IMG/VR virus record: IMGVR_UViG_3300007963_000001
Direction: 5' to 3' (one strand)
DNA: 20,937 nt
From: an uncultured virus (IMG/VR IMGVR_UViG_3300007963_000001)
Taxonomy: Duplodnaviria; Heunggongvirae; Uroviricota; Caudoviricetes
Made by a program: the position numbers and the translations under genes. How positions within the stretch are numbered: position 1 is the first letter of the stretch; the number at the start of each line of letters is the position of its first letter. Below are positions 1 to 20,937 of the stretch, one piece after another. The notes under the pieces are model-generated. The model had not been told where the DNA came from. It was given only the letters and a program-made list of their open reading frames with translations, and made no database searches.

Positions 1-250
1 TCGCATCCCTTGCGTCAAGAGAATCGACAACTGCCCTCAGTTTATCCACATCGGGATTGGGTCGAGTCACTGGTGCTTGACCGAGTTTCTTGACCCAGTG
101 CATTTGCCCACTGGATAATTTGCCTTTGGAGTTGAACTGGTCGAGTAAGGATTGGGCGAATCCCAAGTCCTTTCCGGCTACCTGTCCAGCGTCTATCGCA
201 TCGTTTAGTGCTTGTATGTCGGGGTGTGAGTGTCCTGATACAGTCGTCAT
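1..250 (-). CDS. Partial hypothetical phage protein (runs off the left end)
   Basis: Not in the ORF track. Hand translation gives MTTVSGHSHPDIQALNDAIDAGQVAGKDLGFAQSLLDQFNSKGKLSSGQMHWVKKL..., open to base 1. A TATA-like TTGATAG lies ~26 nt upstream of the ATG. Confidence 0.75.
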   Translation of the reverse strand, partial: MTTVSGHSHPDIQALNDAIDAGQVAGKDLGFAQSLLDQFNSKGKLSSGQMHWVKKLGQAPVTRPNPDVDKLRAVVDSLDARDA

Positions 251-274
251 CAAGTGCCGTCAGGCGAGGCATTG

Positions 275-300
275 GCTATCAATGCTTTGTTTTCTGACTA
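275..300 (-). promoter_or_regulatory. Promoter: TAGTCAGA box, purine-rich BRE-like tract and TTGATAG
   Basis: The 16-mer CTTTGTTTTCTGACTA (285-300) is repeated exactly at 7185-7200. Both copies precede a TGATA box and a gene start. Confidence 0.6.
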
Positions 301-447
301 ACTCGGATTGTGTATCGAGTGGGCTGGATTCCGAAGTTGCAGTCATGCCTTCACCTGCCTGATGAGTGAGCATATTTTGGAATCCTGTGAGTAGCGAATT
401 GGGATGCACTTTCTCACGCCACAGTTCTCGCACAATCCGAGTTAGGA

Positions 448-930
448 TTACTCCGCAAATGGGTTGCGCTTACGCTCGGCCATCCTTGCCTCTCTCTCGA
501 CTCTTGCCTCTGCTCTGCGAGCATCGTCTGCTCTGCGCTTCTGCGCTCTATCCCACCTGACCTTGCCGACATCAACACAGGCATCGACAACAACCTGAAT
601 CACTGGGTCGTTTGGATTATCAAAGTGGATTGCCCATTGGAATCCACGCTTGGTTAAATCGACATCATCAATTCGGATATCATCAGCCGATACAGTTGGT
701 CTGATTATCGACCATGCATCTTCCTTAATCCAAATGGATGCACCACCACCTGCTGACCCATAGATTGCCGCGATTCTTTGGTATGAACCATCAAGGGAGA
801 TTGCAGTGTATTTGACTGCCCCAGCCCTCTTGTCATCACCCACACAATCATGTGCATGGAATGCGTTCATGATGGCTGTCTTTGTCATTGCCTTAATTTC
901 TGCTTTTGTGTATTCACTCATTGCTCTCAA
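448..930 (-). CDS. Hypothetical protein with a charged helical C-terminus (alternative start ATG 921)
   Basis: 160-aa ORF, TTGA overlap with the upstream gene, promoter motif at 946-959. Confidence 0.8.
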   Translation of the reverse strand: MRAMSEYTKAEIKAMTKTAIMNAFHAHDCVGDDKRAGAVKYTAISLDGSYQRIAAIYGSAGGGASIWIKEDAWSIIRPTVSADDIRIDDVDLTKRGFQWAIHFDNPNDPVIQVVVDACVDVGKVRWDRAQKRRADDARRAEARVEREARMAERKRNPFAE

Positions 931-1502
931 TCCTTCCCTGATATTCCCACCGTTATGAAGGAATAGGTTTCTGAGTAATTTCCATCATTGAATAATTTGC
1001 AACATTTGGTGCAAGCAGATTCAGAACCCAAACGCCGTTTTCGATACACCACCTGATTGCAATTTCGACATTTGTATTTCAGAAGTCGCCCTGCTCGATA
1101 TTCATGTTGCTGAATCTTCTTCACGAACCTCTTTCGATGAGTCAGATATTCCTCATATCTCCACCAGTCTTTTTCGACATCTCGGAACTCTCCACGATGA
1201 CCAACTTCTGCGCCCAAAGACAGGTGCAACAATTCATGATGCAATAGACCCTTGAGAAGCAAAGGATGAGCATAGTCAAAGGCGAGTTTGTGAATGGATA
1301 GAGTTGGTGGATTGAAGGACACCGATGCGAGTGTTCTCACTGTTCCTTTCTTGAGGTATCGAAGGCGAAGCCACTTCGTTCCATGAGGCAACCCACCGAA
1401 GATATCGTTTCTTTCGATTCGGAGTTCTCGATAAACTTCCCGAAGTCGAATCAAATCCTCAACAGAAATTGGATTGGTAAGTGTCGAACTCGACATCATC
1501 AT
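927..1502 (-). CDS. SprT-like zinc metalloprotease with a C-terminal zinc ribbon
   Basis: LLHHELLH (HExxH), then GHRGEF, then YKCRNC...CTKC. This is the SprT domain arrangement. Confidence 0.8.
   Translation of the reverse strand: MMMSSSTLTNPISVEDLIRLREVYRELRIERNDIFGGLPHGTKWLRLRYLKKGTVRTLASVSFNPPTLSIHKLAFDYAHPLLLKGLLHHELLHLSLGAEVGHRGEFRDVEKDWWRYEEYLTHRKRFVKKIQQHEYRAGRLLKYKCRNCNQVVYRKRRLGSESACTKCCKLFNDGNYSETYSFITVGISGKD
946..959 (-). promoter_or_regulatory. Conserved promoter motif TTCATAACGGTGGG (copy 1 of 3)
   Basis: Exact 14-mer also at 14311-14324 and 15377-15390, each upstream of a minus-strand start. Confidence 0.7.
1482..1495. repeat. 14-bp palindrome TGTCGAACTCGACA (dispersed site)
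   Basis: TGTCGA-NN-TCGACA also at 2761, 2996, 4331, 9029, 10457, 12247 and 15867. One-mismatch copy at 8512. Confidence 0.9.
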
Positions 1503-1696
1503 TCACCTCCATCTGAGATTTCCACGAAACTCTCGATTGCAAAAACTTCGATGTTTTCACCAACCCTTCGATATGCAAAAGTCAGACTTGGGTTGGCAAA
1601 CAGAATAATCTGCATTTGCCTTCCAAACTCAAGTGGGTTCATTGACGCTGGGAATGTCCACTGGGGGTATCTCACAATACGAGTGGAGAATCCCAC
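1499..1696 (-). CDS. Small hypothetical protein
   Basis: 65-aa ORF. Its 3' end carries the GGAGGTGA RBS and an ATGA overlap for the SprT-like gene. Confidence 0.55.
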   Translation of the reverse strand: MGFSTRIVRYPQWTFPASMNPLEFGRQMQIILFANPSLTFAYRRVGENIEVFAIESFVEISDGGE

Positions 1697-1705
1697 CTAT
1701 ATCAA

Positions 1706-2083
1706 CTACGAAATGAACCGGATTATCCCATCTGCAATGGCTGTTTTCAATTCAACCGTATCACAGATTCTTCCTTCCTTAGTTGCACCCACTGGAAGAA
1801 CCGCATAGAGCAGAGCATCTCCAAACACTTCCATCGTCAGATTTGTTTCGTTATCGACAGTGCCGTTGACCACAAATATGTAGTCAGCCGTGAATCCATT
1901 ATCGTTCTCAATTCTCTTGTCTATGACAGTGCCATTGAACCATTGACATTCACCATCTTCCCAAAAAGGAACTAAGCGGGCTGGCAATGGAGGCATGAGA
2001 GATGCCATAGTCAACATAACCACCGTCATGATAACACCAATTTTGCCGAAAGCAGAAGCAACAGTATTCCTCGACACAATCAC
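1706..2083 (-). CDS. Membrane-anchored or secreted protein with a beta-rich (possibly OB-like) domain
   Basis: N-terminal hydrophobic segment IGVIMTVVMLTMASL, then GTVIDKRIE...YIFVV. Several NxT sequons. CAATAACC box at 2098-2105. Confidence 0.7.
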   Translation of the reverse strand: MIVSRNTVASAFGKIGVIMTVVMLTMASLMPPLPARLVPFWEDGECQWFNGTVIDKRIENDNGFTADYIFVVNGTVDNETNLTMEVFGDALLYAVLPVGATKEGRICDTVELKTAIADGIIRFIS

Positions 2084-2121
2084 AGACGAGAATGTGTGGT
2101 TATTGTCTGAGTTGGTTTGGT

Positions 2122-2205
2122 GGGATGAGGGGGCTTATGAACGGGAACAACATACCCTGCAACCGACCCCCTCACCCCGTATCATTAAGATGTAATCCGG
2201 TTGCA
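2122..2205 (-). other. Candidate structured RNA (pseudoknot) in an intergenic region
   Basis: 2122-2133 pairs with 2167-2178 and 2158-2165 pairs with 2198-2205, interleaved. The A/C mismatches become G-U pairs on the minus strand. Confidence 0.4.
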
Positions 2206-2230
2206 AATTGAACTGGTTAGCCCACCTATA

Positions 2231-2473
2231 TCAACGATGTTGTAGGGTGAACCTGCGAGTGTTGAAGTCTGTGTAGGCATCATAGTCAACTAACCACTTC
2301 GATACATCCTCATCTCGATTCTTGACGGCCATGTTTCTAACCGATACGGAATAACCCATCACCTCAAACATTTGAGTCAGTTGAGCAACCAACTGTGGAG
2401 TTCTCTCCAAAGTCAGTAAATGGGTTCGATTGACGATGTTATCCGATACGAACCACATTTCGTTTTCAGGCAT
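2231..2473 (-). CDS. Hypothetical protein (MPENEMWFVSD...)
   Basis: ORF track 2231..2557; the internal ATG at 2473 is the more plausible start. Confidence 0.65.
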   Translation of the reverse strand: MPENEMWFVSDNIVNRTHLLTLERTPQLVAQLTQMFEVMGYSVSVRNMAVKNRDEDVSKWLVDYDAYTDFNTRRFTLQHR

Positions 2474-2556
2474 CTCAACGAGCAAGAAGCAATCAACCAC
2501 AAAACTCCGAATTATGATGGGTTTTTCACATAATCGTTCCGAATCTGAATAAAACA

Positions 2557-2648
2557 CCTCAGAGAGCGTTCTTGTGTCCAGTGGTAGGTATTGACCTCCA
2601 AACGGAAAGACGCGCTCTATGAGGCTCTATTTGCACAAATCTGACTAT
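2557..2648. repeat. ~90-bp palindromic element, copy A
   Basis: Core TCCAGTGGTAGGTATTGACC (2577-2596) is the exact reverse complement of 10262-10281. Flanks align colinearly. Internal arms CCTCAGAGAGCG and CGCTCTATGAGG. Confidence 0.8.
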
Positions 2649-2788
2649 TTCCGTTCTCATACGACATTCGGGGATATCCGAGTGGAATTGAGTTCCCAAT
2701 ATCACTAATGGAACTGAGAGTATATGAACTTCGCAAAAATCCTGAAAGTCGCTTTTTGGGTGTCGAACTCGACATCGACTTTGATTGT

Positions 2789-2990
2789 GAGATTACAACT
2801 GGTGACGACAATGTTGCTATCGGAGAATAAGCGGGATGAAATCACAACTGGAAATGAAAACATCGCTATCGGGAATTAAGCAGTTCAGACTACGAGTGGT
2901 TCTAACAACTGGAGATTACAATGTCGCTATTGGTCAAGAAGTAGTTTGAGATTCCAACTGGAGATTACAATGTCGGGATGGGGAAGGAAT
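2789..2990 (+). pseudogene. Silent array of four tail-fibre repeat fragments
   Basis: Units translate as ITTGDDNVAIGE*, ITTGNENIAIGN*, LTTGDYNVAIGQ and IPTGDYNVGMGK. Spacing is 49/61/49 nt, so they are out of frame. Bracketed by palindromes at 2761-2774 and 2996-3009. Confidence 0.75.
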
Positions 2991-3016
2991 CGAGGTGTCG
3001 AACTCGACAGGGAACA

Positions 3017-3337
3017 TCATGATTTTTTCTTGGATTTTTTCTGATTCTTTTTCTCAGGAATCGCCCATTCTCCTTTCATCGGTTTTTCCATCTTCAACCA
3101 ATAGTCGATATTCTGTTTTGATGCCCACTTCAACGAGAGCGACAAATCGACATTTCTCGATGTGCAATCACGGTGGAGTTTCTTCCAAAACTTCTCGGAC
3201 TTCCGAGCCTTCCTTAGAAGTCGCTCAAGATTCCTGATTCTGTCCTTGCACTGAGGACAGCATTGATTCTGTTTGGCCGATGATTTCGACAATTCTTCTC
3301 GTTCCTTCTCGGAAGGATTTCTTATTCCATCGGTCAT
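3017..3337 (-). CDS. Basic hypothetical protein (CPQC, Lys-rich tail)
   Basis: 106-aa ORF overlapping the upstream gene by 113 nt. Start uncertain. Confidence 0.45.
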   Translation of the reverse strand: MTDGIRNPSEKEREELSKSSAKQNQCCPQCKDRIRNLERLLRKARKSEKFWKKLHRDCTSRNVDLSLSLKWASKQNIDYWLKMEKPMKGEWAIPEKKNQKKSKKKS

Positions 3338-4082
3338 AGGTAGCCTCTATGTTCAGGTCGTATCTGAGTTGGAGCATAATCCTTGTCCATTCTCCGACCT
3401 TAGACATGACTGTTTGCTCGCTTTGGTGGACTACGATTGGTGGAAGGTCATCATACCTCACACCAGTTGGTTCTTTGAGTTCGCCCCAGTCATCTCGGCG
3501 TTCTCTGACCACTGTTGGGAACGCAGGTCTTTCGACCAACATCCAATCTTGCTTATGCTCCGCAAAGGGAACGAAATAGTGCTTCTCCCAAACCATGAAT
3601 GGCGGAACTGGACAGAGCCGTTCCCGATTGAATTGACCAGCAGTCACATCGACAATGAAGAACTCCGTTTCGACTACCACATGACCTTGATACCCACCCT
3701 CCTTCATACTGACCGTATCGTGTCCACACTCGGTCACATAGGGTGCAGGGCATCCCCTTGATTCAAGGTCGTCTAATTGAGCCTCGACTTCATCAGTCAA
3801 CTCATCTCCCCCATTCCAATTTCCAACAACGACCTTGCCCATCTCGTTCCATAGGAAAACATCGGAACAGACGAGTTTGGAATTGAGATTGTGATGCTTC
3901 TTCAACAGCATCTTGAACACCTGAGATTCCTGAATGCAAGAACCCACATTTGCATGGCCTGACATTTGGTGATAATTGAACAGAGATTGGAACACATCAT
4001 TGATGGCTAATTTCTCATTCTCCTTCCTCTTGAAAGTGAGTTTCTTCTGTTTGAAATTAGCCATGATATTCAACTCCATCAA
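3225..4082 (-). CDS. Transglutaminase/papain-like Cys-His-Asp protein
   Basis: GSCIQES ... GHVVVE ... IVDVTAGQF matches the C-H-D triad pattern. ATGA-coupled to the upstream gene. Confidence 0.55.
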   Translation of the reverse strand: MMELNIMANFKQKKLTFKRKENEKLAINDVFQSLFNYHQMSGHANVGSCIQESQVFKMLLKKHHNLNSKLVCSDVFLWNEMGKVVVGNWNGGDELTDEVEAQLDDLESRGCPAPYVTECGHDTVSMKEGGYQGHVVVETEFFIVDVTAGQFNRERLCPVPPFMVWEKHYFVPFAEHKQDWMLVERPAFPTVVRERRDDWGELKEPTGVRYDDLPPIVVHQSEQTVMSKVGEWTRIMLQLRYDLNIEATYDRWNKKSFREGTRRIVEIIGQTESMLSSVQGQNQES

Positions 4083-4744
4083 CAGTGGTAGTTATTGCAG
4101 TTCAAACAGATGGCAATTTGCATTCTCTCTGAACCAACCCAACCCCATCTCCAAGACAAAACCTTGCCTTGATTTGAGGCGCAATAACATCTCATATCCA
4201 AGATGCCTTTTTGCAACACGATTGGAGTGGTATTCTGAAATCTGTTCCCCGTTGGAAGAAATGATTCTCCATCGAGATGAGTTTCTCTGAATTGGTTGTG
4301 GTTTCGGATTGGTTGGAGTGGTTTAGGGCGTGTCGAGGTCGACAGGTGAGAATCAAACAAATCATCGAATCCATCGTAGCCCAAAACGGATTGAACATCT
4401 GACATGAAATCGAAGAAAATGTGCATCTCAGGAATCGCTTCTGTGTAGTGAAGGAAACAATTCTTCCGACTTGATTTTTTGATTACTGTCGATTGCGCTT
4501 TCCATGCACGATATAGAGCATGGGTATTGATGATGTTTTTCGACTTAGTTCCAGTTGGAACATTGGTCTTGATTTGACTTGCTTGAGAACCCAATGGGGA
4601 AGTAGCCCCACTTTCTCTTTTGGAAACCCATCTTGGTGTCTGTGGAGTCTTGAAATCAGGGTTGTTTCTATTCGCCCAAGCGAAGTCCAACCATTCTTCC
4701 ATCTGCAACTGGAATTGGGTTTGTGCTTGCTGAGTCATACTCAT
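4079..4744 (-). CDS. Hypothetical protein with a Cys-containing C-terminus
   Basis: Long ORF; ATG 4744 overlaps the upstream stop (ATGA). Confidence 0.75.
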   Translation of the reverse strand: MSMTQQAQTQFQLQMEEWLDFAWANRNNPDFKTPQTPRWVSKRESGATSPLGSQASQIKTNVPTGTKSKNIINTHALYRAWKAQSTVIKKSSRKNCFLHYTEAIPEMHIFFDFMSDVQSVLGYDGFDDLFDSHLSTSTRPKPLQPIRNHNQFRETHLDGESFLPTGNRFQNTTPIVLQKGILDMRCYCASNQGKVLSWRWGWVGSERMQIAICLNCNNYHC

Positions 4745-6604: not shown

Positions 6605-6756
6605 TCACTCACCCCACAATCAAGAATCGTAGCCTTAGTGAATCTGTTGAATATCAAGCCACAACGCCTACAATCCCGCCCCCGATTGAACCATTTGACT
6701 GTTCGTGGATTGTCGCATCGTATGCAACCAACCCAAAGAGAACCACCAAGACTCAT
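6601..6756 (-). CDS. 51-aa CxxC/CxxC zinc-ribbon micro-protein (paralog of 13968-14138)
   Basis: Not in track. MSLGGSLWVGCIRCDNPRTVKWFNRGRDCRRCGLIFNRFTKATILDCGVSE. GAGGTGA RBS, ATGA overlaps. Confidence 0.8.
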   Translation of the reverse strand: MSLGGSLWVGCIRCDNPRTVKWFNRGRDCRRCGLIFNRFTKATILDCGVSE

Positions 6757-7461: not shown

Positions 7462-7616
7462 GCATTCCACCCTTGCTTCCTGTATTTCTCCCAACCTTCC
7501 AAGACATCTCTAAGACGAATCCATTTCCGGCAAGATGGTTTGGTGTGAATAGCATAATGAAAATCAGTCAAAGTCCATTCAGACTTATCACATTCACAAT
7601 ACTCACTTTCACTCAT
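7458..7616 (-). CDS. 52-aa micro-protein
   Basis: Not in track. MSESEYCECDKSEWTLTDFHYAIHTKPSCRKWIRLRDVLEGWEKYRKQGWNA. GAGGTGA RBS, ATGA at both ends. Confidence 0.7.
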   Translation of the reverse strand: MSESEYCECDKSEWTLTDFHYAIHTKPSCRKWIRLRDVLEGWEKYRKQGWNA

Positions 7617-7885
7617 TCTTTCACCTCGTAATCCTCATGTTTCTCCAACTGCACTATGTCTGTGTTAAGTTCAATCCAAACTCTTGCACCGCACGATAAT
7701 GGCTTATCAGGAGAATACATGATGGTTGCAAATACTTCCCCTGTTTCAACACAAACCAAGTCCACAGAATCACGATATTCATTCGTCTTGTAGGTCTTGC
7801 AGGTGATAACGGGTTTTCTCTCGGAAACTTCGCACTTTTGATTGTGCCGAATGTGGTGTTGGTTGATGTGAATAATCTGTTTCAT
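7613..7885 (-). CDS. Conserved hypothetical phage protein (IHINQH...YSPDKPLSCGARVWIE type)
   Basis: Motif pattern that I recall as widespread in aquatic phages. GAGGTGA RBS. Confidence 0.8.
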   Translation of the reverse strand: MKQIIHINQHHIRHNQKCEVSERKPVITCKTYKTNEYRDSVDLVCVETGEVFATIMYSPDKPLSCGARVWIELNTDIVQLEKHEDYEVKE

Positions 7886-7909
7886 TGTTTCACCTCGTAA
7901 TCCTCATGT
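7613..7909. repeat. 28-bp direct repeat (7613-7640 and 7882-7909) flanking one gene
   Basis: TCATT[C/G]TTTCACCTCGTAATCCTCATGT. Both genes end in HEDYEVK[E/Q]*. Confidence 0.85.
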
Positions 7910-8674: not shown

Positions 8675-9205
8675 CTATTCTTCTTCATCCATTTCGATGT
8701 CAATGATAGGGGGGGTATTCGCTTCCTTCTGAATGACAGTTCGGAACTGGTCGAGTGGGTCATAGCCAATGTTCACCTGCACCTGTGGCACAGCCTCCTG
8801 TGCGCCAGTGAACTTGTCCATTGACTCCTGTGCCTTCACCAATCCACCGACCATGAACGACACCGAGTTGAGTTTGCTCACAGAGTCAGCCTCAGACTCG
8901 GCTCTGTCGATGATGCGCTCAAGCCTGTGGAGATTCTTCTTCCTTCGTGTGTAGGAATCCAATCGGAGAAAGTCAGTCGAGCCGAGTTCAGCCCTGCTGA
9001 TTACCATTGACCTCATGTCCTTAGCGACTGTCGAACTCGACAACATAAGTTGATTCCACTGCTCAAGGGGGAGAGGAGAGTGAAATATCGAGTTCTCCGA
9101 TAGCGACCTACGAATCTGAGATTCTGTTTTTCCTTCGATGAGAAGCATTGCAACCCATCTGACTAATGCATCGTCATTGTGTGGAATCAATTCTTTGTCT
9201 TTCAT
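8675..9205 (-). CDS. Putative terminase small subunit
   Basis: N-terminal HTH-like segment (LLIEGKTESQIRRSL), helical middle, C-terminal VQVNI strand and IIDIE acidic tail. Architecture only. Confidence 0.5.
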   Translation of the reverse strand: MKDKELIPHNDDALVRWVAMLLIEGKTESQIRRSLSENSIFHSPLPLEQWNQLMLSSSTVAKDMRSMVISRAELGSTDFLRLDSYTRRKKNLHRLERIIDRAESEADSVSKLNSVSFMVGGLVKAQESMDKFTGAQEAVPQVQVNIGYDPLDQFRTVIQKEANTPPIIDIEMDEEE

Positions 9206-10127: not shown

Positions 10128-10210
10128 CCTCAACACGCTCCGCAGTTAGTCAGGCTGTGGGCTGGTTCTTGAATATCCCTGAATATCCGGTATGTTGGTG
10201 GGAACGGTAG

Positions 10211-10314
10211 TAGTCATATTCGTATCAATAGAGGCTCATACAGGCCGTTGTTTGCCTCGCGGGTCAATACCTACCACTGGATTAGTCGATGCGCTCTGTG
10301 CGCTTCTATTGATA
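10211..10314. repeat. Palindromic element, copy B (inverted relative to copy A)
   Basis: Core GGTCAATACCTACCACTGGA at 10262-10281. Arms 10223-10243 and 10294-10314 are complementary at 17/21. Confidence 0.8.
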
Positions 10315-10561
10315 TTCGTAAGATATGGTGCAGGTTGCGAGGATGAAAGAAGGTAGGTGTGATTCCTCGCTGGCTGGAATTAGTTCAATCTCCCCCGAAC
10401 CATTTTCCAACCACCTGCAATCGGAAATGAAATCCTGATGGTTATTGAGAATGTGGTGTCGAGTTCGACAGGGAAGTTCTCTGCACGAAAACGAAATCCA
10501 AACCAAGATGATGAGTTTTGGTTATTGACTGAGAAGATGATTCAGTCTGAAATTGAAAATG

Positions 10562-10594
10562 AAAAAAAGGGGAGAAGCCCGAAGGCTTCCCCCC
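10562..10594 (-). terminator. Hairpin terminator with a cUUCGg loop and U7 tail
   Basis: Minus strand reads GGGGGGAAGCC-TTCG-GGCTTCTCCCC-TTTTTTT, 30 nt after the stop at 10625. Confidence 0.85.
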
Positions 10595-10624
10595 AATTTG
10601 TTTCGTGCTTTACTTCAAGTTCTT

Positions 10625-11098
10625 TCAGGGGAAGTAAAGAGATGGTGCGCCGTCAAGACTCTGCTCCATCATTGAGTCATACTCAGCCCAGTGGTCAGCG
10701 TGAGCAGTGAGGTCAACAATCACAGTTGTTGAAACCTGTGTCCAGCCATACTTCTGATAGGCACTTGGGTATGAGTATGGATAGCCAGCCGGATTGAGAA
10801 TCTGTTCCTTGATTCCATTCCTGATGTCCTCAAAGTGTTGCTCTCTCTCAGTGTGATATGCTTTCTTCTCAGCATCAACACGCTCTGCCATCCTAACCCA
10901 CTCTGCGGCTACGGTTGCATCTGTGGTGTGGTGAGTTCTGTTTGCATATCCATCTGAACTCACAGTTCTTGTCCACCCATTCTCAACAGACATCACTGGT
11001 GCAAGGATAGTAGCAACACTTGGGGTGTTAGCCATCATCCATGCAACTGCGATACCTGCAACGCTTGCATTCATTCTCCTTGTTTCTGTTGTCGTCAT
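10625..11098 (-). CDS. Hypothetical protein (157 aa, MTTTETRRMN...)
   Basis: GGAGATGAAAAA leader before ATG 11098; followed by the terminator. Confidence 0.8.
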   Translation of the reverse strand: MTTTETRRMNASVAGIAVAWMMANTPSVATILAPVMSVENGWTRTVSSDGYANRTHHTTDATVAAEWVRMAERVDAEKKAYHTEREQHFEDIRNGIKEQILNPAGYPYSYPSAYQKYGWTQVSTTVIVDLTAHADHWAEYDSMMEQSLDGAPSLYFP

Positions 11099-11144: not shown

Positions 11145-11987
11145 TTATGCCTCAGACTCCAAGTCGTCAGCACGACCAACCTTGCTTCGGTAGTGGATAT
11201 CCAAGACAACCTCTGTCCTGTTGTCTGCGTGTCGCTCTGCTTGCTTGTCGACAGGTGTGAACTTCTTGAATCCGAACTTTGCAACGCAGGTGTTTCCAAC
11301 GAACATTCCGACATGAGTTCCGTCTGCCCTCTGAGCAACTACTGGGTATGTTCCAGTCTTGATTCCGTTCTTGCCGCAAGCCTCGCAGTCGTGTCCATCG
11401 TAGCGGGATGTGAACTCAGTTCCAACAGGCCATGCTGGGTAGTGTGCATTGACTGCAACATCCTCTGTCCACTCAAACACATATCCAGTTGAGTTCCTCT
11501 TGGTGACTCCCCTATCGCGGCAGTATTGGCTTCGACCATTAGCGCAGGTCGAGCAAGGGAATCCTCTGAGTGGGAAGAAGCCCATCTCCTTTGGAAGTCC
11601 TCTGTTCCTGTTCTTGACTTCTTGCCAGCGAGCAGAGGACAGTTCCTCTGCTGACTCGTAATTGATTTCAGTTCCATCATACTCGGTTGGGTTTGGCTGA
11701 CCTGCTTGCTCATACATTTCGTCAATGGTGAACACCGCATTTATCGACCAATCATCACCTATGATTCTGCGAGAGTAAAATGACCTGATGTTCTCAGGGT
11801 CAGTAAGGAACTCTCTTGGTGCATAGAGGTCGTATCTTACTCCATCACCACCGCAGTCGCCGCAACGAACTCGTAGGTTCATGTCGCGGCGTTCTGCTCG
11901 GACTGTGGTTGGTGTCATTCCCCACTGCTCAGGTGTGGTGTCAATCTCAGTTATTGTTGTCAGTGTTTTCGTGCTGTGCTTGCTCAT
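11145..11987 (-). CDS. Multi-CxxC zinc-binding hypothetical protein (280 aa)
   Basis: CGDCGG, CSTC, CEACGK and VGNTC motifs. Same GGAGATGAAAAA leader. Confidence 0.85.
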   Translation of the reverse strand: MSKHSTKTLTTITEIDTTPEQWGMTPTTVRAERRDMNLRVRCGDCGGDGVRYDLYAPREFLTDPENIRSFYSRRIIGDDWSINAVFTIDEMYEQAGQPNPTEYDGTEINYESAEELSSARWQEVKNRNRGLPKEMGFFPLRGFPCSTCANGRSQYCRDRGVTKRNSTGYVFEWTEDVAVNAHYPAWPVGTEFTSRYDGHDCEACGKNGIKTGTYPVVAQRADGTHVGMFVGNTCVAKFGFKKFTPVDKQAERHADNRTEVVLDIHYRSKVGRADDLESEA

Positions 11988-12058
11988 GTTTTTTCATCTC
12001 CTGTTGTTTCTTCTCGGCTCGGCTGGTGCGGAACTTGTTCCGCATGACAGGCCACCCC

Positions 12059-12083
12059 CTTATGAGTGTTCCGAATCTGACTA
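12059..12083 (-). promoter_or_regulatory. Promoter TAGTCAGA-N9-CTCATAAG
   Basis: Same box-to-TATA arrangement as at 300 and 7200, upstream of the 11987 gene. Confidence 0.5.
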
Positions 12084-12304
12084 TTCCTTTGAAATCGGTT
12101 TGCAGAGGCTTCGGGGATTCCCAATATCCCATTCTGACTGTTCTCAAAACATTCCGTGTCGGATTCGATTTGACTCGTATCGGATTCGACAAGTTTGGTT
12201 TGCAACAATCACCATCTCAGAATCTTCCGAAAGCCCTGCATCGGGTTGTCGAGTTCGACACGGAAGGAATGGGGCATTTGCTATGAGAGCGAAAAAAAAA
12301 CGGC

Positions 12305-12613
12305 TCATAGAAGATGGTCGATTGCAGATTGGATTTTCAGAATGCAAAGTCTGCAACTAACATTCTCGATTCTGCAAGTTGCTTCGACAAGATGCTCCGC
12401 CTTGCTCAAGTCCAACTGATTGCGCCTTGCTGAACTCAGGTATTCTTGCGACTGAGTTGAGAGGCAACCGAATGCATATCTCTCACCCTGCCGTGTCCAC
12501 ACGACAAAGTGAATCATCCGATTAGTTCTGATACTACCGACATCTGCTTTGGTAGCATCAGGATATTTGATTCTCAGGAATCGCCTGAGCCTATGCAGTT
12601 CTTCCCTCGTCAT
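12305..12613 (-). CDS. Hypothetical protein
   Basis: 102-aa ORF. TCAATAACC box at 12636-12644, 22 nt before the ATG. Confidence 0.65.
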   Translation of the reverse strand: MTREELHRLRRFLRIKYPDATKADVGSIRTNRMIHFVVWTRQGERYAFGCLSTQSQEYLSSARRNQLDLSKAEHLVEATCRIENVSCRLCILKIQSAIDHLL

Positions 12614-12647
12614 CAGAGATAGTCTGCTTCAATGTGGTTATTGACTT

Positions 12648-12965
12648 TCACAAATCAAACGATGTAATTGGATTATCTGCGAATCTCTGTATGATTGACT
12701 TCTCTCGGCACTCGTTGCATAGAGTCATCAATCGAGTTTCTCCGTGATGATAGAAGGAAGTCAAGTTCTTTCCTGTGCATCCATCAGATGCCTTCTTCGT
12801 TCCCCTCCATTCACACTTCAACTTCTCAGGCTCATCCTCAATGATGACCTCGTAAGAGTCGTCTAACTTAGTCACGATATCCTCACCGATTTTTGTCAGT
12901 GAGGATTCGATGCTTTCCAATGCGCTCGCCAATCTTCCTTTCTCAATTGCTTCTTCAAAGTTCAT
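12648..12965 (-). CDS. Coiled-coil plus Cys-rich hypothetical protein
   Basis: ATG 12965 overlaps the upstream stop; C...C...CNEC. Confidence 0.7.
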   Translation of the reverse strand: MNFEEAIEKGRLASALESIESSLTKIGEDIVTKLDDSYEVIIEDEPEKLKCEWRGTKKASDGCTGKNLTSFYHHGETRLMTLCNECREKSIIQRFADNPITSFDL

Positions 12966-13243
12966 ATCGTTCTCTCCATCATTTCTTTTTTCATCTGCTC
13001 TGCTTCTCTGTGAGATTTGCACATAGCGACAATGAAATCCATCACCGCGATTCCTCGTTTTGGGTCAACCCCGATATAGGGCAACATACGAGCCGTATTG
13101 ACCAACACACTATCACACCAATTACAACATCTGAGTGTGAAGTCAGCACATTCTTCATCAGACCTCAGTATCGGATATGGATTGCAACCGAAGTCAGGCT
13201 TCACAAATGGTTTGTCGCAGAAGCAACACTTCTCAGGATTCAT
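12962..13243 (-). CDS. Zinc-finger protein (CCFC...GCNPYP...CCNWC)
   Basis: AAGGTGA RBS and ATGA coupling at 13243. Confidence 0.75.
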   Translation of the reverse strand: MNPEKCCFCDKPFVKPDFGCNPYPILRSDEECADFTLRCCNWCDSVLVNTARMLPYIGVDPKRGIAVMDFIVAMCKSHREAEQMKKEMMERTI

Positions 13244-13377
13244 GCACTCACCTTCTTGTCTATCATATCGAGAAGTTGTCGTTCCGCCCAAGCGATATTA
13301 GCGATTGAGCGTGGTGTATCACCATAGAGTCTTGACTCCTTTTTGATGATGCGTAAGTAGTAGTGTGCATCCTTCAT
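13240..13377 (-). CDS. 45-aa micro-protein
   Basis: Not in track. MKDAHYYLRIIKKESRLYGDTPRSIANIAWAERQLLDMIDKKVSA. ATGA at both ends. Confidence 0.7.
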   Translation of the reverse strand: MKDAHYYLRIIKKESRLYGDTPRSIANIAWAERQLLDMIDKKVSA

Positions 13378-13646
13378 GCACTCACCGCTCCAGCCTTCAT
13401 ACTACTCGTCACAATCATCAGTGCTTCCATCTGCGTGTAGCCCATGTCTGCATTTGCTTTGTCGCAAATCTCTTGGCAATCAGCAAGGGTATCACCCCAG
13501 TAGTAAGGCAATGCACCAGCACCCTGTCCTCGACAGGGAACATGACCTGCTTGATTCTCAACCACAAGTGATGGAATGAATTGAGTGATACCATCAATGA
13601 CATCGTAATCTCCAGCCGCCCAATAGACGAACCTTCCCTGAATCAT
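13374..13646 (-). CDS. Hypothetical phage protein (FIPSLVVENQAGH...YYWG...IVTSSM)
   Basis: 90-aa ORF, GGTGA RBS, ATGA-coupled. Confidence 0.8.
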   Translation of the reverse strand: MIQGRFVYWAAGDYDVIDGITQFIPSLVVENQAGHVPCRGQGAGALPYYWGDTLADCQEICDKANADMGYTQMEALMIVTSSMKAGAVSA

Positions 13647-13882
13647 TCCCCATCACCATCCGTTGTCCACTCATCCAAGACTCCCTGAACGAACTCGATT
13701 TCTTGTTGAAGTTCCTTAACTGCATCTCCCCAATTATTTTCGTATTCGATATCGTGCATGGAAAGTTGGTGGCGGAATCTTGGCTTGTTGCGAAGCATAA
13801 TGTCCAACGCCTTGCGTAGCCCTCTGAGTTCTGACTCGACCTCAAAGACAATTTCATGATGCTCTGTTGCTTCGACCATCAT
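13643..13882 (-). CDS. Acidic helical hypothetical protein
   Basis: ATG 13882 overlaps the upstream stop. Confidence 0.7.
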   Translation of the reverse strand: MMVEATEHHEIVFEVESELRGLRKALDIMLRNKPRFRHQLSMHDIEYENNWGDAVKELQQEIEFVQGVLDEWTTDGDGE

Positions 13883-13971
13883 TTCATCCACCTACACTTC
13901 ACACACTGGAGTCGTTGAACCCCCCAAAAAGAAGCCATCTTAGTTTCGCTATCGCAAAGTGGGCAGTTCAA
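13879..13971 (-). CDS. 30-aa zinc-ribbon micro-protein
   Basis: Not in track. TTG start, (M)NCPLCDSETKMASFWGVQRLQCVKCRWMK. TTGA and ATGA overlaps. Confidence 0.6.
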   Translation of the reverse strand: MNCPLCDSETKMASFWGVQRLQCVKCRWMK

Positions 13972-14138
13972 ACAATCATCTCCCTTTGCCTTGCTTCCTC
14001 TTGCATCCTTGCATAATCATGAACCATATCACCATTGATGTTGAATATCAACCCACAACACTTGCAATCCCGCATATACACATTCACCCATTTGCGTGTT
14101 CGTGGATTCTCACACCGTATGCACTTGACCCACTTCAA
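13968..14138 (-). CDS. 56-aa zinc-ribbon micro-protein (paralog of 6601-6756)
   Basis: Not in track. (M)KWVKCIRCENPRTRKWVNVYMRDCKCCGLIFNINGDMVHDYARMQEEARQREMIV. Confidence 0.8.
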   Translation of the reverse strand: MKWVKCIRCENPRTRKWVNVYMRDCKCCGLIFNINGDMVHDYARMQEEARQREMIV

Positions 14139-14278
14139 TCAATCATCTCCTTGTTGATTCTCTCCAGTGCTTCTCTTGCATCTGCAATCACTTCGTCAGT
14201 CAGTTCTATTTTGTTGATGGCGAGAATGAACCTTAGTAGGTCATTCTCAGCAATCAATTCTTCATTCGTTGTTGTCAT
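14135..14278 (-). CDS. 47-aa acidic helical micro-protein
   Basis: Not in track. MTTTNEELIAENDLLRFILAINKIELTDEVIADAREALERINKEMID. Downstream of the promoter motif at 14311-14324. Confidence 0.7.
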   Translation of the reverse strand: MTTTNEELIAENDLLRFILAINKIELTDEVIADAREALERINKEMID

Positions 14279-14310
14279 GTTCTCGTTCCTCGTAATTGCT
14301 AATCGGGATT

Positions 14311-14324
14311 CCCACCGTTATGAA
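14311..14324 (-). promoter_or_regulatory. TTCATAACGGTGGG promoter motif (copy 2)
   Basis: 17-bp identity (14308-14324) with 943-959. Confidence 0.7.
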
Positions 14325-14342
14325 TGATTTGATTTCTCAATA

Positions 14343-14630
14343 TCACAAATGACTAAGATATTCTTCACACAAATCTCGTATCGCTCTCATCGTTTCTGAG
14401 AATGCTCGATTCCAACTATCCGTTCCTTTGTCGATAGTATCGGGGAAGTCGGCACGAATGATTCCCAAGACAGATACAGCATTCACTGGAATCATATCGT
14501 GGAATTGCTTTGACGATTCATACACTTCGACATGAACCTTGTTTAGCAGAATCGAAGCGTCATTCAAATCACCAGTTTCGTATGCAGTCAATGACGACCT
14601 CAGAACATCTGTGACTTCTTCATCTTTCAT
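14343..14630 (-). CDS. Helical hypothetical protein
   Basis: 95-aa ORF, ATGA-coupled. Confidence 0.75.
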   Translation of the reverse strand: MKDEEVTDVLRSSLTAYETGDLNDASILLNKVHVEVYESSKQFHDMIPVNAVSVLGIIRADFPDTIDKGTDSWNRAFSETMRAIRDLCEEYLSHL

Positions 14631-14764
14631 TTGTTGACACGCCCCGCAGTCAGTTCACTGTTCAGTTTGTGATGGATGTATTTTCGATAGTGTTCGTAGC
14701 AGAGTCGAGCCTTGTATATCTCAAGATTACAACCAACGCCCATACACACAATGCATCCAATCAT
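14627..14764 (-). CDS. 45-aa Cys/His micro-protein
   Basis: Not in track. MIGCIVCMGVGCNLEIYKARLCYEHYRKYIHHKLNSELTAGRVNK. ATGA at both ends. Confidence 0.65.
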   Translation of the reverse strand: MIGCIVCMGVGCNLEIYKARLCYEHYRKYIHHKLNSELTAGRVNK

Positions 14765-14997
14765 AATCTCGTTCTCCACACCCAACTCTTGCCTTCCTTC
14801 CTTCCGATGTATTTGGGATTCCTACGCAACAATGGATTCAGTTCTGAGATGCTCAAGTTCAGGCGTTTGTGTTCCTTCAACAATCTGCCTGATTGGAACT
14901 TCGCACCGTTCAGGATTTCGTATGATGAGCATGGTTGATTCTGAGATATGAAATCAAAGATGACCTTATCTCGATGTGGGTTATCCCTTCTCGCCAT
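14761..14997 (-). CDS. Small winged-helix-like DNA-binding protein
   Basis: IFDFISQNQPCSSYEI...SISELNPLLRRNPKY...WVW pattern. Confidence 0.6.
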   Translation of the reverse strand: MARRDNPHRDKVIFDFISQNQPCSSYEILNGAKFQSGRLLKEHKRLNLSISELNPLLRRNPKYIGRKEGKSWVWRTRL

Positions 14998-15359
14998 CAG
15001 ACTTCATCCTCCATGTTCAATTCGGACTTTGCTCTATCGAGTATTTTCTCAACGAGAGATAGACTCGGTTCTATGTGTTGCAATGTTGTGATAATCAAGT
15101 CAGTTTGGAACTCACCCTGCTTCTCATTATTGTTGGTGACTGAAAGTAATCTTTGGAGTAATTCTTCCGCCCGTATTATTTCAGTTTGAACGAGGGGATG
15201 GTCGGGTTCTTGGTGGAGGTGTGCTTCCACAAATCGTTTGACTTCCCAAGACTCGATTTCTCCTTTCGATTTGTTAGGGCTTACGAACTCATCAATCGCT
15301 TCCATCAATTCCAAATCATCAATGGCAAGCGCATCGAAATGATTGCTACCTTTCGCCAT
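14997..15359 (-). CDS. Acidic hypothetical protein
   Basis: 120-aa ORF. The TTCATAAC box is 23 nt before the ATG. Confidence 0.75.
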   Translation of the reverse strand: MAKGSNHFDALAIDDLELMEAIDEFVSPNKSKGEIESWEVKRFVEAHLHQEPDHPLVQTEIIRAEELLQRLLSVTNNNEKQGEFQTDLIITTLQHIEPSLSLVEKILDRAKSELNMEDEV

Positions 15360-15376
15360 ATCAAGAATGTGTTAAG

Positions 15377-15390
15377 CCCACCGTTATGAA
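15377..15390 (-). promoter_or_regulatory. TTCATAACGGTGGG promoter motif (copy 3)
   Basis: Exact 14-mer at leaderless-transcript spacing from ATG 15359. Confidence 0.7.
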
Positions 15391-15581: not shown

Positions 15582-15630
15582 ATTTCACAACTCCAAACGA
15601 GGGAGTCTTTGAAGGAATAATTAGGGTTCA

Positions 15631-16152: not shown

Positions 16153-16241
16153 TGATTACACCCTTACGATTATGGCTTATCTGAGTTTTGACGACACCTA
16201 TCAAGATAACCAAACACACAATAACCACCCGCATCAATGTA

Positions 16242-16502: not shown

Positions 16503-16562
16503 TGATACACGCATTCTCATCGCCAATGTTAGACGATAGATTCCAGTGTATCTTATCCTCAC

Positions 16563-17498: not shown

Positions 17499-17518
17499 AG
17501 TATCATCTCTTTATTCCA

Positions 17519-20500
17519 TCATGTGAATGTAGTCCATATTGCGGCTTTCGCCCCTGTTCCTGAGTTTGAAAGATTTGGTGATGCGGGGGGTGAAGTTGAG
17601 CCATCCGCCCATAATTTGAATCCATTAGATACACCGACATTACCTCCTGAGCCTGAGATGTTAGGTAATGTATTAGACGACCATGCTAAGATATTGAATG
17701 GTGTAGTAGTGCTTTGGTTGTTTGCCCAATTTGAAACCATAATAGCATAATACTTTGAACTATCCAATAGTAATGATTGCCCACTTGCGGCTACCCAACT
17801 TACTGAATTGTAGCCTGTTGAACCCGATGCTGTGACAAACTTTGAAGCCGCCCAAGTTGCCGTAGCGATTAAGGTGCTACTAAGAGAAGAAGAAGTTAGT
17901 GTTGATGAAGGCAACTCATACAGTGCCGCAATTACTCCGGTATCAGCCGAGCCACTTGACAAGGAGTTAATGTAAATCCATGCGTTAGATAGAGTTTTAC
18001 TTTCTGTAAAACTAACTAAATTGCCATAAGCCCAATAACCATTCATTACCTGAGTAGTCATACCACCAGCAGTTCCATTCATCATCGGAACTCTGTTCGA
18101 TTCTGTGAACTTGAAAGCACCCGAATCTGTATTAGCACCCATAGACGCACCGTTGTTTGTCAATCCATTGGGGAAGTCAACAACTCCTGATGAATTACCT
18201 GTCATCCAAACGGGGCTTCCATCACCGGATGAAATTGATAGTTGGTCATTACCAGTAGCCGATGAAACATTAGCACCACCGATTACGACATTGTTTGAGC
18301 CGGAGGTGATGTTGCTCCCACTGTCCTTTCCGACTATGATATTCAGGTCGCCGTCTGTGATGGCATTCGCACTGTTCTTGCCGATGGCTATGTTGCCGTT
18401 TGCATCATTACTTGATGCAGTTCCACTCTGACCCCCAGCCATATATCCGATTGCTATGTTTGCATCAGACGCACCCCATCTCTTACCTGCGCCTCTGCCG
18501 ACAAATACTACTTGGTCGTAAGATGCACCATCATCACCAGCCTCCATTCCGATTACAACATTGTCATGACCATCGGTTCGCTTACCTGCCGTTTCTCCGA
18601 TGAACACATTTCGATGTCCTTGAGTTCCGATTCCCCCAGCCTCTTTTCCGATTATTACACACTGCTCGGAATGGGTCAAAGCCTTCCCTGCATCCTTGCC
18701 AATCAGAACATTCTTGCCACCTGTGGTCAATCCAGTTCCGGCCTGATATCCGATGGCGACTACATCATCAGCAGAGGTTAGTGCATCGAGTGAGTAGTTT
18801 CCGATTGCGACATTGAACTCTCCACCTGCAACAGCACCCGTCATAGCATCGTAGCCTATGGCGAGATTGTCCGATTCCGTGTCTGCGTTATCGTAGGAAT
18901 TAGTTCCTATGGCGATGTTGCGATTTCCGGTAGTGACCCCATGATTCGCACTCCTTCCGTAAGCAATGTTGTCACCGCCCGAAGTCAAGTATCGGAATGC
19001 CCAACTTCCTATTCCTATGTTGTTTGAGCCGGAGGTGTGAGCATAGCCGACAAACGAGCCTATGGCAATGTTGTAAGTTCCGCCATTGTAATTGCCACTC
19101 GACAGAGCCATCGAACCCATCGCAATGTTGTGTGCTTCTGTGGTGATTCCACTACCTGCTGATTCTCCGATGAATACTGAACCTGCTCCGGTTGTTAGAG
19201 CAGTTCCCGCGCTTGCACCAATAACTACGCTGTTTGTTGAAGCCATGTTTCTTCCAGCATCCGTTCCGATAGCAACACCTTGCGCTTGGCCTGTTGCACC
19301 ATCCATCGCTCGGTAGCCAATTGCGACAGACTTGTAGCCCGTAGTCATGGACTTCATAGCGTCTTTTCCGATTGCGACATTGGATGAACCACTGGTGACT
19401 GAGGAAAGGGCATCCTTTCCGATTCCGATATTTGAGTGTGCATTATTCAGAGTTCCATGTGGGGGAACAGCACCATCAGGAGATATTAGAATGCTGTCTG
19501 TGAAGTTGGTGATGTTGCTGATTACATCGGTTAGTCCGTTGAGGTCAGAAGCACCACCACCTGCGGCATCCTCCCAAGCCGCCCCGCTACCTGTCGAAGT
19601 CAACACTTGACCATCAGAACCAAGAGAGCCGTTGAGTTGGATTTTCGATGCGGGGAAGTTGACCGTTCCATTACTCGTTCCGGTAATCCAAACACACGCC
19701 CCATCTTGGTCGGATAGAGAACTGATGGATAGTTGCTTATTCCCTGTTCCACTTGCTACATCGGCCAAGCCTATGACGACATTCCCTGTTCCACTTGTGA
19801 TGTTATCTCCAGCATTCCAACCGATAGCGATGTTTTTGCTACCCGAAGTCACCGTGTCTAATGCATTACTTCCAATCACGGTGTTATAGTGAGCCGAAGC
19901 ATGAGTGTTTGAAGTTCCACCAGCATTATCTCCAATATACTGATTGCCTGTTCCATGTAGTTTAACAGCCGCTTGATGTCCTACGACTACATTGTTCCCC
20001 CAAGTGCTGTTTGCATCGTAGCCAGCCAGCGCACCAATCAGCACATTTCCATTAGTTGTTTGTGCCTTACCTGCCCAATCGCCAATTACGACTGAATCTG
20101 AACCGGAGGTATAGGCCAAACCCGCCTCCCTTCCGATGAAAACATTGTCCTCTCCGCTCGTAATTCCCGACCCTGCAAGGTGTCCGATTGCAACATTGTG
20201 GTCGCCGGAGGTCAAAGCATCAAGCGTGTAATTTCCAACACTGGTATTCTTCTCTCCACCAGCAATCGCGCCACCCAACGCATTGAAGCCAATTCCGATA
20301 TTGTCGCTTTCCGTGTCTGCGGCATCTATGGAGTTATTTCCAAACGCTAAGTTTCTGCTACCTGATGTATTGGCGTTTAGACTCCTATATCCGAGTGCTA
20401 AGTTATCATCACCCGTAGTGATGACCTTCAAACTCATGTGGCCTATACCTGTGTTATTGTCGTTGTTGGAAGTATTGCTTGAATCGCCTTCACCTGCGGC

Positions 20501-20937
20501 ATATCCCATGAATATAGAATAGTTAGCATTAGAGCCGTATTTACCTGCATCATTTCCTATGGCGATATTGTAGCCCTTTGCATCAGATGTTGCGTGTTGC
20601 CCCGCATTATTTCCTATGAAAACTACACCTGTTGATTGTGCGTTTTCACCTGCACTTCGCCCAATCATTACTGCGCTACTTCTGTCGTGAATTGCCCTAC
20701 CTGCCCTTGCACCAATAATGACACAATCTGTTCCTGTTTGTTGTGCCTCACCCGCATATTCGCCTATCATTACATTTCTGCCGCCAGTAGTGATTAGTTT
20801 GCCAGCCTCATATCCGAGTGCTATTGAGTGGTCAGCAGAAGTTATTGTTGAAAGAACATCTTTTCCAATGCCTATGTTTCCTGTTGCTCCATTCAATGTT
20901 CCTGTCGTTGGTGCTGAACCGTCACTATCTGTTTGAA
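17519..20937 (-). CDS. Giant tail fibre/adhesin with TxGxxNxAIG beta-roll (YadA-head-like) repeats, 5'-truncated
   Basis: More than 1125 aa and open to the window end. Dozens of ~14-aa N(I/V)AIG repeats, a GQVLTSTG linker and a distinct C-terminal domain. Confidence 0.9.
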   Translation of the reverse strand, partial: QTDSDGSAPTTGTLNGATGNIGIGKDVLSTITSADHSIALGYEAGKLITTGGRNVMIGEYAGEAQQTGTDCVIIGARAGRAIHDRSSAVMIGRSAGENAQSTGVVFIGNNAGQHATSDAKGYNIAIGNDAGKYGSNANYSIFMGYAAGEGDSSNTSNNDNNTGIGHMSLKVITTGDDNLALGYRSLNANTSGSRNLAFGNNSIDAADTESDNIGIGFNALGGAIAGGEKNTSVGNYTLDALTSGDHNVAIGHLAGSGITSGEDNVFIGREAGLAYTSGSDSVVIGDWAGKAQTTNGNVLIGALAGYDANSTWGNNVVVGHQAAVKLHGTGNQYIGDNAGGTSNTHASAHYNTVIGSNALDTVTSGSKNIAIGWNAGDNITSGTGNVVIGLADVASGTGNKQLSISSLSDQDGACVWITGTSNGTVNFPASKIQLNGSLGSDGQVLTSTGSGAAWEDAAGGGASDLNGLTDVISNITNFTDSILISPDGAVPPHGTLNNAHSNIGIGKDALSSVTSGSSNVAIGKDAMKSMTTGYKSVAIGYRAMDGATGQAQGVAIGTDAGRNMASTNSVVIGASAGTALTTGAGSVFIGESAGSGITTEAHNIAMGSMALSSGNYNGGTYNIAIGSFVGYAHTSGSNNIGIGSWAFRYLTSGGDNIAYGRSANHGVTTGNRNIAIGTNSYDNADTESDNLAIGYDAMTGAVAGGEFNVAIGNYSLDALTSADDVVAIGYQAGTGLTTGGKNVLIGKDAGKALTHSEQCVIIGKEAGGIGTQGHRNVFIGETAGKRTDGHDNVVIGMEAGDDGASYDQVVFVGRGAGKRWGASDANIAIGYMAGGQSGTASSNDANGNIAIGKNSANAITDGDLNIIVGKDSGSNITSGSNNVVIGGANVSSATGNDQLSISSGDGSPVWMTGNSSGVVDFPNGLTNNGASMGANTDSGAFKFTESNRVPMMNGTAGGMTTQVMNGYWAYGNLVSFTESKTLSNAWIYINSLSSGSADTGVIAALYELPSSTLTSSSLSSTLIATATWAASKFVTASGSTGYNSVSWVAASGQSLLLDSSKYYAIMVSNWANNQSTTTPFNILAWSSNTLPNISGSGGNVGVSNGFKLWADGSTSPPASPNLSNSGTGAKAAIWTTFT

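Follow-up and report, generated by a model that had tools for sequence, protein, structure and literature searches.

A non-coding segment derived from tail-fibre repeats lies in either orientation between dispersed palindromes in uncultured marine phages

The window, a stretch of 20,937 nucleotides from an uncultured marine phage of the Caudoviricetes (IMG/VR record IMGVR_UViG_3300007963_000001), carries between two transcription units a 221-nt segment, here called the cassette, which is made of tail-fibre-type repeats and is bracketed by two copies of a 14-bp palindrome. The palindrome is dispersed over the window. In two related lineages the cassette is inverted exactly between the bracketing sites, and in a third the 2-bp centre of one site is flipped. 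The reading proposed here, which is given about an even chance of being correct, is that recombination within the dispersed palindromes inverts this non-coding, fibre-derived segment and probably also exchanges it. According to this proposal, the recombination would take place inside the palindrome arms, a dedicated invertase would be dispensable, and the cassette would have at most a minor function in cis.

The cassette, its sites and the fibre gene are arranged in the window as follows:
2759..2774, no strand: left site, GG followed by TGTCGA-AC-TCGACA; the centre is GT in the relative X7 (2767 A>G, 2768 C>T) and on this flank of the relative G002
2775..2995, plus strand: cassette body, 221 nt, two diverged 110-nt half-repeats with two fibre-motif units apiece and no through-running open reading frame (ORF)
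2795..2823, plus strand: unit 1, TTGDDNVAIG, identified by six-frame translation, a motif regular expression and comparison with the fibre
2844..2872, plus strand: unit 2, TTGNENIAIG, in the +1 frame relative to unit 1, with a 16-nt exact fibre match at 2857-2872
2905..2933, plus strand: unit 3, TTGDYNVAIG, in the +1 frame relative to unit 2
2954..2982, plus strand: unit 4, PTGDYNVGMG, in the +1 frame relative to unit 3
2994..3009, no strand: right site, GG followed by the 14-mer; the stop codon of the neighbouring gene B is 7 nt away
1482..1495, 9029..9042, 10457..10470 and 12247..12260, no strand: other exact copies of the 14-mer, found by a motif scan
17519..20937, minus strand: 3' part of a giant fibre or tail-spike-like gene (phrog_4636, tail spike, 1.5e-66; phrog_6002, virion structural protein, 1.3e-67)

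Six-frame translation of positions 2700-3060 yields EITTGDDNVAIGE, EITTGNENIAIGN and VLTTGDYNVAIGQEVV, each closed by a stop, and EIPTGDYNVGMGKE, in plus-strand frames 2, 0, 1 and 2. Each unit is a 29-mer of the form ACAACTGG...GG, and the general motif of the four is the fibre-type TTGxxNxAIG. The corresponding regular expression, [TSP][TS]GxxN[IVL][AGF][IVLM]G, was run on the six-frame translation of the window and matched 11 times, four times in the cassette (plus strand) and seven times in the fibre ORF (minus strand); it found no match in 200 shuffles of 17.5 kb of non-fibre DNA. The preliminary description of this DNA, made from the sequence alone, had reported four plus-strand units carrying the fibre repeat motif, spaced 49, 61 and 49 nt from start to start, with stops that exclude a single ORF. 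All of this is confirmed: the units are successively +1 out of frame and are closed by stops. The TTSGSNN motif reported in the same place is present and overlaps the start of unit 3, the exact 21-mer common to units 3 and 4 lies at 2906-2926 and 2955-2975, and the reported agreement of unit 1 with the fibre at 21 of 24 nt is consistent with the 23 of 29 nt found here against the codons of TSGDHNVAI. The two half-repeats (2795-2875 and 2905-2985) are 72% identical and constitute repeat family D1. The unit junctions all read codon-T-RAG; past the TGA of gene B in G002, unit 1 lies in the frame of that gene.

No ORF crossing the cassette is present in a collection of 5.8 billion proteins, and no intact gene stands in its place in any relative examined. 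The conclusion that the cassette is non-coding and derived from fibre-type repeats is supported. Translation by stop read-through combined with three +1 frameshifts was considered and set aside as improbable; the cassette is antisense to gene B in six of the eight records that span it. A further regularity is seen at the DNA level. The 10-mer GAGATTACAA occurs four times in the cassette (2789-2798, 2912-2921, 2948-2957 and 2961-2970), one copy having a mismatch. The copies are partly 13 nt apart and span different frames (EIT versus GDYN), a spacing beyond what the peptide motif needs.

The bracketing sites share the 16-nt sequence GGTGTCGAACTCGACA, at 2759-2774 and 2994-3009. Identical palindromes, TGTCGAACTCGACA, had been reported at 2761 and 2996, and both are indeed there, but the palindrome is interrupted by its centre, so that in the window the two copies are direct repeats. 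The 14-mer is, moreover, no private bracket of the cassette. The window contains six exact copies, at 1482, 2761, 2996 and 9029 on the plus strand and at 10457 and 12247 on the minus strand; a scan that allowed up to two mismatches gave 19 strand-wise matches at 11 places, where 0.20 would be expected. The 14-mer is found as well in four other records (G001, G002, G003 and G004), with five exact copies in G002. At matching positions of the window and G002 the arms TGTCGA and TCGACA are kept and the 2-bp centre varies (GT versus TA at 10457, TG versus TA at 15867). Since the arms are reverse complements of each other, any two copies are at once direct and inverted repeats. Some copies lie inside ORFs that are conserved in G002, and the ORF map is too crude and noisy for an estimate of intergenic enrichment. 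The form TGTCGA-NN-TCGACA stands in the window at 1482, 4331, 8512, 9029, 10457, 12247 and 15867, with arms kept at matching positions in relatives of 77% identity, and TCGA is over-represented about 1.3-2.1 times in all five records. The dispersed palindrome may serve a dimeric protein as an operator-like site, or may be a signal for recombination. Near-copies of the motif in the fibre gene were examined as a source of the cassette and rejected: they encode N-terminal S/T-rich stretches far from the TTGxxN repeats.

Relatives were sought with exact 19-22-mers and with a degenerate pattern of two out-of-frame units. These searches identified the cassette in three IMG/VR contigs and one metagenome contig, always at one locus, and Logan contigs of four runs were placed on window positions 2000-3800. 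Eight records span the cassette (the window, G004, L136, G003, record 9 of run X5, X7, X14 and G002), representing about five lineages. At 99.7% and 99.97% identity, G004 and L136 represent the phage of the window itself, and the X5 record is identical to it and collinear. G003, about 93% identical overall and 95-100% locally, has the same arrangement. X7 (record 13) is collinear with nine differences, two of which, 2767 A>G and 2768 C>T, reverse-complement the centre of the left site.

The two remaining records carry the cassette inverted. G002, an IMG/VR contig of 26 kb, is collinear with the window over 17 kb at 68-94% identity, the cassette excepted: window positions 39-2738 (77.8%) and 2996-3978 (74.0%) align in reverse and 2760-3010 forward, at 97.2%. 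Its sites, TGTCGAGTTCGACA and TGTCGAACTCGACA, are perfect inverted repeats. In record 1 of X14 (1775 nt) the flanks, 2000-2704 and 3011-3600, lie on the minus strand with 31 and 19 differences (about 96% identity), and 2760-3010 lies on the plus strand with 12 differences; the joints at 2704/3010 and 2760/3011 were flagged as being on opposite strands. The cassette is therefore inverted in two of the eight records and a site centre is flipped in one. The states are:
Window and others: left centre AC, cassette forward, right centre AC
X7: left centre GT, cassette forward, right centre AC
G002: left centre GT, cassette reversed, right centre AC
X14: left centre not visible, cassette reversed, right centre GT

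The sites are thus inverted (GT...AC) in G002 and X7, and direct (AC...AC) in the window, G003 and G004. The inversion is taken to be real because the 14-bp repeat is shorter than the assembler k (at least 21) and two independent assemblies agree; misassembly is an unlikely source. The association of the cassette with the palindromes holds in the relatives, where every breakpoint of orientation falls at these sites. A site-flanked array with variable unit content had been anticipated there: the array is kept, but its unit content is the same in all. Beside the left site, at 2745-2760, the window reads GTCGCTTTTTGGG and G002 GGAAAAATCGAC, roughly the reverse complement, which may be a second micro-inversion. 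X14 has 57 unalignable bases beside the same site.

The cassette body differs between the window and G002 at 5 of 221 nt, whereas the flanks are about 22% diverged; the binomial probability of at most seven differences over 251 nt is 1.5e-18. Among G002, G003 and X7 the variable positions are distributed over the cores (four: 2806, 2821, 2870 and 2955) and the spacers (five: 2791, 2876, 2883, 2942 and 2987). At 12 differences in 251 nt, the X14 cassette shows no better conservation than the flanks beside it. Although these flanks are far closer to the window than those of G002, the X14 cassette is less window-like than that of G002, which indicates that the histories of cassette and flanks are uncoupled. 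Uncoupled histories together with evenly spread substitutions agree better with a recent exchange that had its ends at the sites than with purifying selection acting site by site. The pattern is compatible with a function of the cassette.

In the proposed mechanism, breakage and rejoining within the 6-bp arms would flip the DNA between them, and the same process could flip the 2-bp centre of a single site. The four arms of two sites make up four inverted-repeat pairs, recombination between which could turn over the cassette, the whole of site, cassette and site, or either centre. By our derivation, recombination between arm pairs reaches every state observed. As the cassette encodes nothing, either orientation would be tolerated, and the lineages now differ. 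The same junctions would probably permit exchange of the cassette between co-occurring lineages, which would produce a cassette of about 97% identity beside flanks of about 77%.

Small inversions by template switching are known from the hairpin loops of non-coding chloroplast DNA and from quasipalindrome mutagenesis, and usually involve single hairpins. The present case resembles them in the reverse-complemented centre of X7, in the flipping of a larger segment between arms and in that a dedicated enzyme would not be needed. It differs in that the motif is dispersed, has arms conserved in position in diverged relatives, and bounds 221 nt.

Several points weigh against recombination within the arms. 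The contigs record differences between lineages, not ongoing inversion, and arms of 6 bp in a site of 14 bp are short for homologous recombination. The hairpins of the sites are weak (-3.2 to -3.7 kcal/mol, no better than shuffles), which disfavours breakage driven by cruciforms. Other pairs of sites show no rearrangement, the rest of the window being collinear in the alignments with G002 and G003, and by our reading of the alignments the other indel breakpoints relative to G003 are not at motif copies. A precise invertase that used inverted sites would switch between exactly the states of G002 and X7, and could be encoded in the unseen half or so of the genome. A neutral passenger, moreover, leaves unexplained both the four recognizable motif cores and the 10-mer that recurs at 13-nt offsets across frames. 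As to exchange, no empty site, no deletion joint and no second place of insertion of the cassette was found in the records compared, and the cassette as a freely exchanged module is unproven.

Nearly all ORFs of the window are on the minus strand, and in the direction of transcription the order is gene A, gene B, the cassette, a gap of about 200 nt with a conserved element, and gene C:
3225..4082, minus strand: gene A, 285 aa, with invariant Cys, His and Asp positions (GSC, TECGHD, GYQGH)
3017..3337, minus strand: gene B, a basic protein of 106 aa, conserved in relatives, whose stop abuts the cassette
2577..2659, minus strand: conserved element; its 20-mer GGTCAATACCTACCACTGGA at 2577-2596 recurs at 10262-10281 (plus strand) and is identical in G002
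2231..2557, minus strand: gene C, of about 100-108 aa, which follows downstream

The homologues of gene B all end before the cassette, with the same K-rich tail, and none is fused to the repeats; gene B has no match in Pfam or PHROG. Genes A and B overlap by 113 nt (3225-3337) in different frames, and by 104 nt in G002. For gene A the ESM Atlas gives a lead to DUF2026 or lasso-peptide B2-like proteins of the transglutaminase type (score 0.93), which makes it a putative member of that group. Gene A was considered as a recombinase, but the Atlas lead is to the DUF2026 or lasso-B2-like proteins instead; its AlphaFold2 model (mean pLDDT 45.3) was unusable. It has no sequence match in the PDB and none among GenBank phage proteins, and its profile retrieves the same three IMG/VR contigs only and nothing in GTDB genome contigs. 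Homologues are also found on contigs of 79-86 kb.

The conserved element is 83 nt long and has an inverted copy at 10199-10281 (plus strand) with 75% identity; the stretch L131:99-112 was noted with it, and the DNA around its 20-mer is about 70% identical in G002. The copies lie upstream of gene C and of a plus-strand ORF at 10438-10710, and the element may be a phage-specific promoter or 5' leader. Two direct repeats were observed elsewhere, one of 85 nt with 79% identity (6645-6726 and 14039-14123) and one of 28 nt with 96% identity at the starts of two adjacent genes (7613-7640 and 7882-7909).

The genome is estimated at about 80 kb from the CheckV completeness of its fragments. G004 overlaps the window and carries terminase-like and portal genes past its start; G001 overlaps positions 11950-20937 only and is without the cassette locus. 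About 43 kb of the 80 kb were available for gene searches. GenBank phages yielded no DNA match to the whole window, nor to the cassette in a distant mode of search, and remote matches only to the portal protein. The locus is contained, partly or wholly, in 20 of the 24 runs listed (11 studies), nearly all of them labelled as marine, seawater or viral metagenomes. The sample of run X5 is filed under a named organism (organism A) rather than as a metagenome, and its contigs are identical to the window; the label may give a lead to the host or habitat.

The readings weighed here overlap in part. One alternative is a programmed switch, in which a recombinase from the unseen half of the genome or from the host would flip the cassette at the 14-bp sites within populations. 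Orientation would then set what read-through from genes A and B contains, antisense or sense fibre cores or a weak terminator, and so tune gene C or the fibre. The sites of G002 and X7, which are perfect 14-bp inverted repeats and differ only in the orientation of the cassette between them, are what such a switch would leave. Orientation differs even between relatives whose flanks are about 96% identical, which suggests that flipping is frequent on an evolutionary scale. A minus-strand transcript in the window orientation would be antisense to the fibre cores, with 16 nt as the longest contiguous match, and a cassette in the G002 orientation has weak terminator-like hairpins, with T-rich tails, that point along the gene direction. 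A cut at a fixed central dinucleotide, however, explains the G002/X7 pair only; the direct sites of the window and the different centre of X14 do not fit it. No serine or tyrosine recombinase, resolvase, invertase or integrase was found with Pfam in 54 ORFs of the window, G001 and G004, and no recombinase with PHROGs among the 33 ORFs of the window. The sole RNA-library contig (run X20) covers 2326-2497, inside gene C, and no sigma-70-like promoter was detected in 2200-3400. Unlike the cassette, the fibre, at a distance of 15 kb, is very different in the window and in G002. On balance the programmed switch is considered unlikely.

Fibre-linked invertible segments are classical in phages: the G segment of Mu (Gin), the C segment of P1 (Cin), and those of e14 and p15B, to which the shufflons (Rci) may be added. 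In segments of the Mu/P1 type alternative translatable fibre 3' ends lie beside a constant 5' part and an invertase gene. The cassette resembles them as a fibre-related phage segment between short repeats that occurs in both orientations. It differs in that nothing in it is translatable, the fibre is 15 kb away and no invertase was found in the 43 kb searched; the sites, moreover, are 14-bp palindromes that are direct in the window. The G invertible segment of Mu is cited in PMC13501310.

A second alternative, also judged improbable, is that of a mobile mini-cassette. Recombination between the direct sites would free a circle with one site, which could re-enter a site copy of a co-infecting relative in either orientation, so that the two orientations would be independent insertions rather than inversions in place. 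By our derivation, a one-arm crossover with a reversed circle gives the G002 arrangement and direct integration that of the window, each state being reached in one step. The 97.2% block ends exactly at the sites, with flanks of 74-78% beyond, and the X14 cassette has a history uncoupled from that of its flanks. Against this stand the confinement of the cassette to a single locus in one phage lineage and the lack of an empty site or deletion joint among the records compared; none of the other motif copies in four records carries a cassette. A miniature inverted-repeat transposable element was also considered and rejected: each genome carries the cassette once, always at the same locus, and the GGG at both ends in the window has no corresponding duplication in G002.

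The mini-circle has a precedent in the PeSLs of T4-type phages, on which Comeau et al. (2014; PMC4122927) published a follow-up paper. By analogy, the cassette appears to work most like the shuffling mediated by these elements. In the account of Arbiol et al. (2010; PMC2839356), PeSLs consist of a strong sigma-70-like promoter and a terminator stem-loop, and mini-circles are described. The likeness lies in a short conserved motif dispersed among small ORFan genes, in a breakpoint between related phages exactly at motif copies, and in the direct-repeat state of the window, which could release a mini-circle. The differences are that no promoter was found here in 2200-3400 and the hairpin is weak, that the event is an inversion and not the gain, loss or replacement of a gene, and that other indels relative to G003 are not at motif copies.

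The cassette might instead be an array of functional nucleic-acid sites, protein-binding DNA or a structured or trans-acting RNA, held by selection irrespective of orientation; this is regarded as quite improbable. Its identity of 97-98% across lineages beside flanks of about 77% would be accounted for, as would the eight GARATYACAA-like 10-mers, paired 13 nt apart; four of the six matches to the 10-mer in the window (at most one mismatch) are inside the cassette. The 10-mer was not found at other regulatory-looking places, substitutions fall evenly on cores and spacers, and the X14 cassette is as diverged as its flanks. The minus-strand RNA fold has a z-score of -3.9, but this stems from pairing of the palindromic ends, and the plus strand has +0.36. 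Rfam gave no match at the gathering score in the window, and in 2400-3200 two chance-level matches only, both outside the cassette.

A narrower form of the switch, a phase-variable fibre module in which the flip sets whether operon read-through carries four antisense fibre-repeat cores, is very improbable. The 9.5-kb fibre mRNA could offer the antisense cores dozens of sites for pairing. The general idea of an antisense RNA is weakened because the orientation of the cassette relative to the surrounding operon differs between lineages: in G002 and X14 it is sense to the operon, and in G002 it is also sense to the fibre-like gene. A decayed relic is possible and compatible with the broken frames, but decay alone leaves unexplained the inversion and the contrast of 97% with about 77%.

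The leading idea of the preliminary description, that the cassette is a silent library of donors for diversifying the fibre by recombination, is extremely improbable and has already been weakly refuted. By DNA and by peptide the units belong to the fibre repeat family, they are retained though untranslatable, and recombinogenic sites flank them. The fibre gene, about 15 kb from the cassette and with its repeats in frame, is complete in G001 (L002:3649-13155, plus strand), where it encodes 3168 aa. The units match it at 21-23 of 29 nt and so are no nearer to it than its repeats are to one another (17-24 of 29); the tract of 16 nt at 2857-2872 is the longest exact one that they share with it. 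Fibre variants carrying the exact units had been predicted; neither the phage's own fibre gene nor a search of IMG/VR with the 21-mer of units 3 and 4 produced one, the 21-mer being confined to the three cassette-bearing contigs. The degenerate unit pattern found 122 stretches, of which the other 120 are mostly in ORFs with the same repeat, and the closest of these to any unit agree over 29-31 nt at 90-94%. All relatives have the same units, while the window and G002 have fibres that can hardly be aligned, and neither a reverse transcriptase nor another diversifying enzyme was found with Pfam among the 54 ORFs. The fibre gene itself comprises several repeat classes and has no Pfam match; its counterpart in G002 is much shorter (ORF 2383-4380) and barely alignable to it.

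Silent-cassette systems include pilS/pilE and vls antigenic variation, and diversity-generating retroelements may be set beside them. Like these, the phage has untranslated partial copies of a receptor-binding repeat away from the expressed gene. It differs from them in that tracts common with the expressed gene were not found and the unit content is constant, and from the retroelements also in that no reverse transcriptase was found in the 54 ORFs, nor a template-variable repeat pair.

Most of the inversions known from phage genomes are switches, driven by an invertase, between translatable fibre ends. Here an untranslatable fibre-derived segment changes orientation among marine lineages at a dispersed 14-bp palindrome, with no invertase found in about 43 kb. 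Should the flip prove to be programmed, it would represent phage phase variation of a new type, tied to the receptor-binding fibre. If the phase-variable module were true, sub-populations would differ in fibre output, and the inverton would act through multi-site antisense RNA and lack a recognizable invertase. If the palindromes are general junctions for recombination, as proposed here, they would be a simple means by which an abundant group of uncultured phages could undergo micro-rearrangement and exchange modules. On both views the dispersed motif, with arms that stay in place across relatives of 77% identity, is a candidate signal for regulation or recombination.

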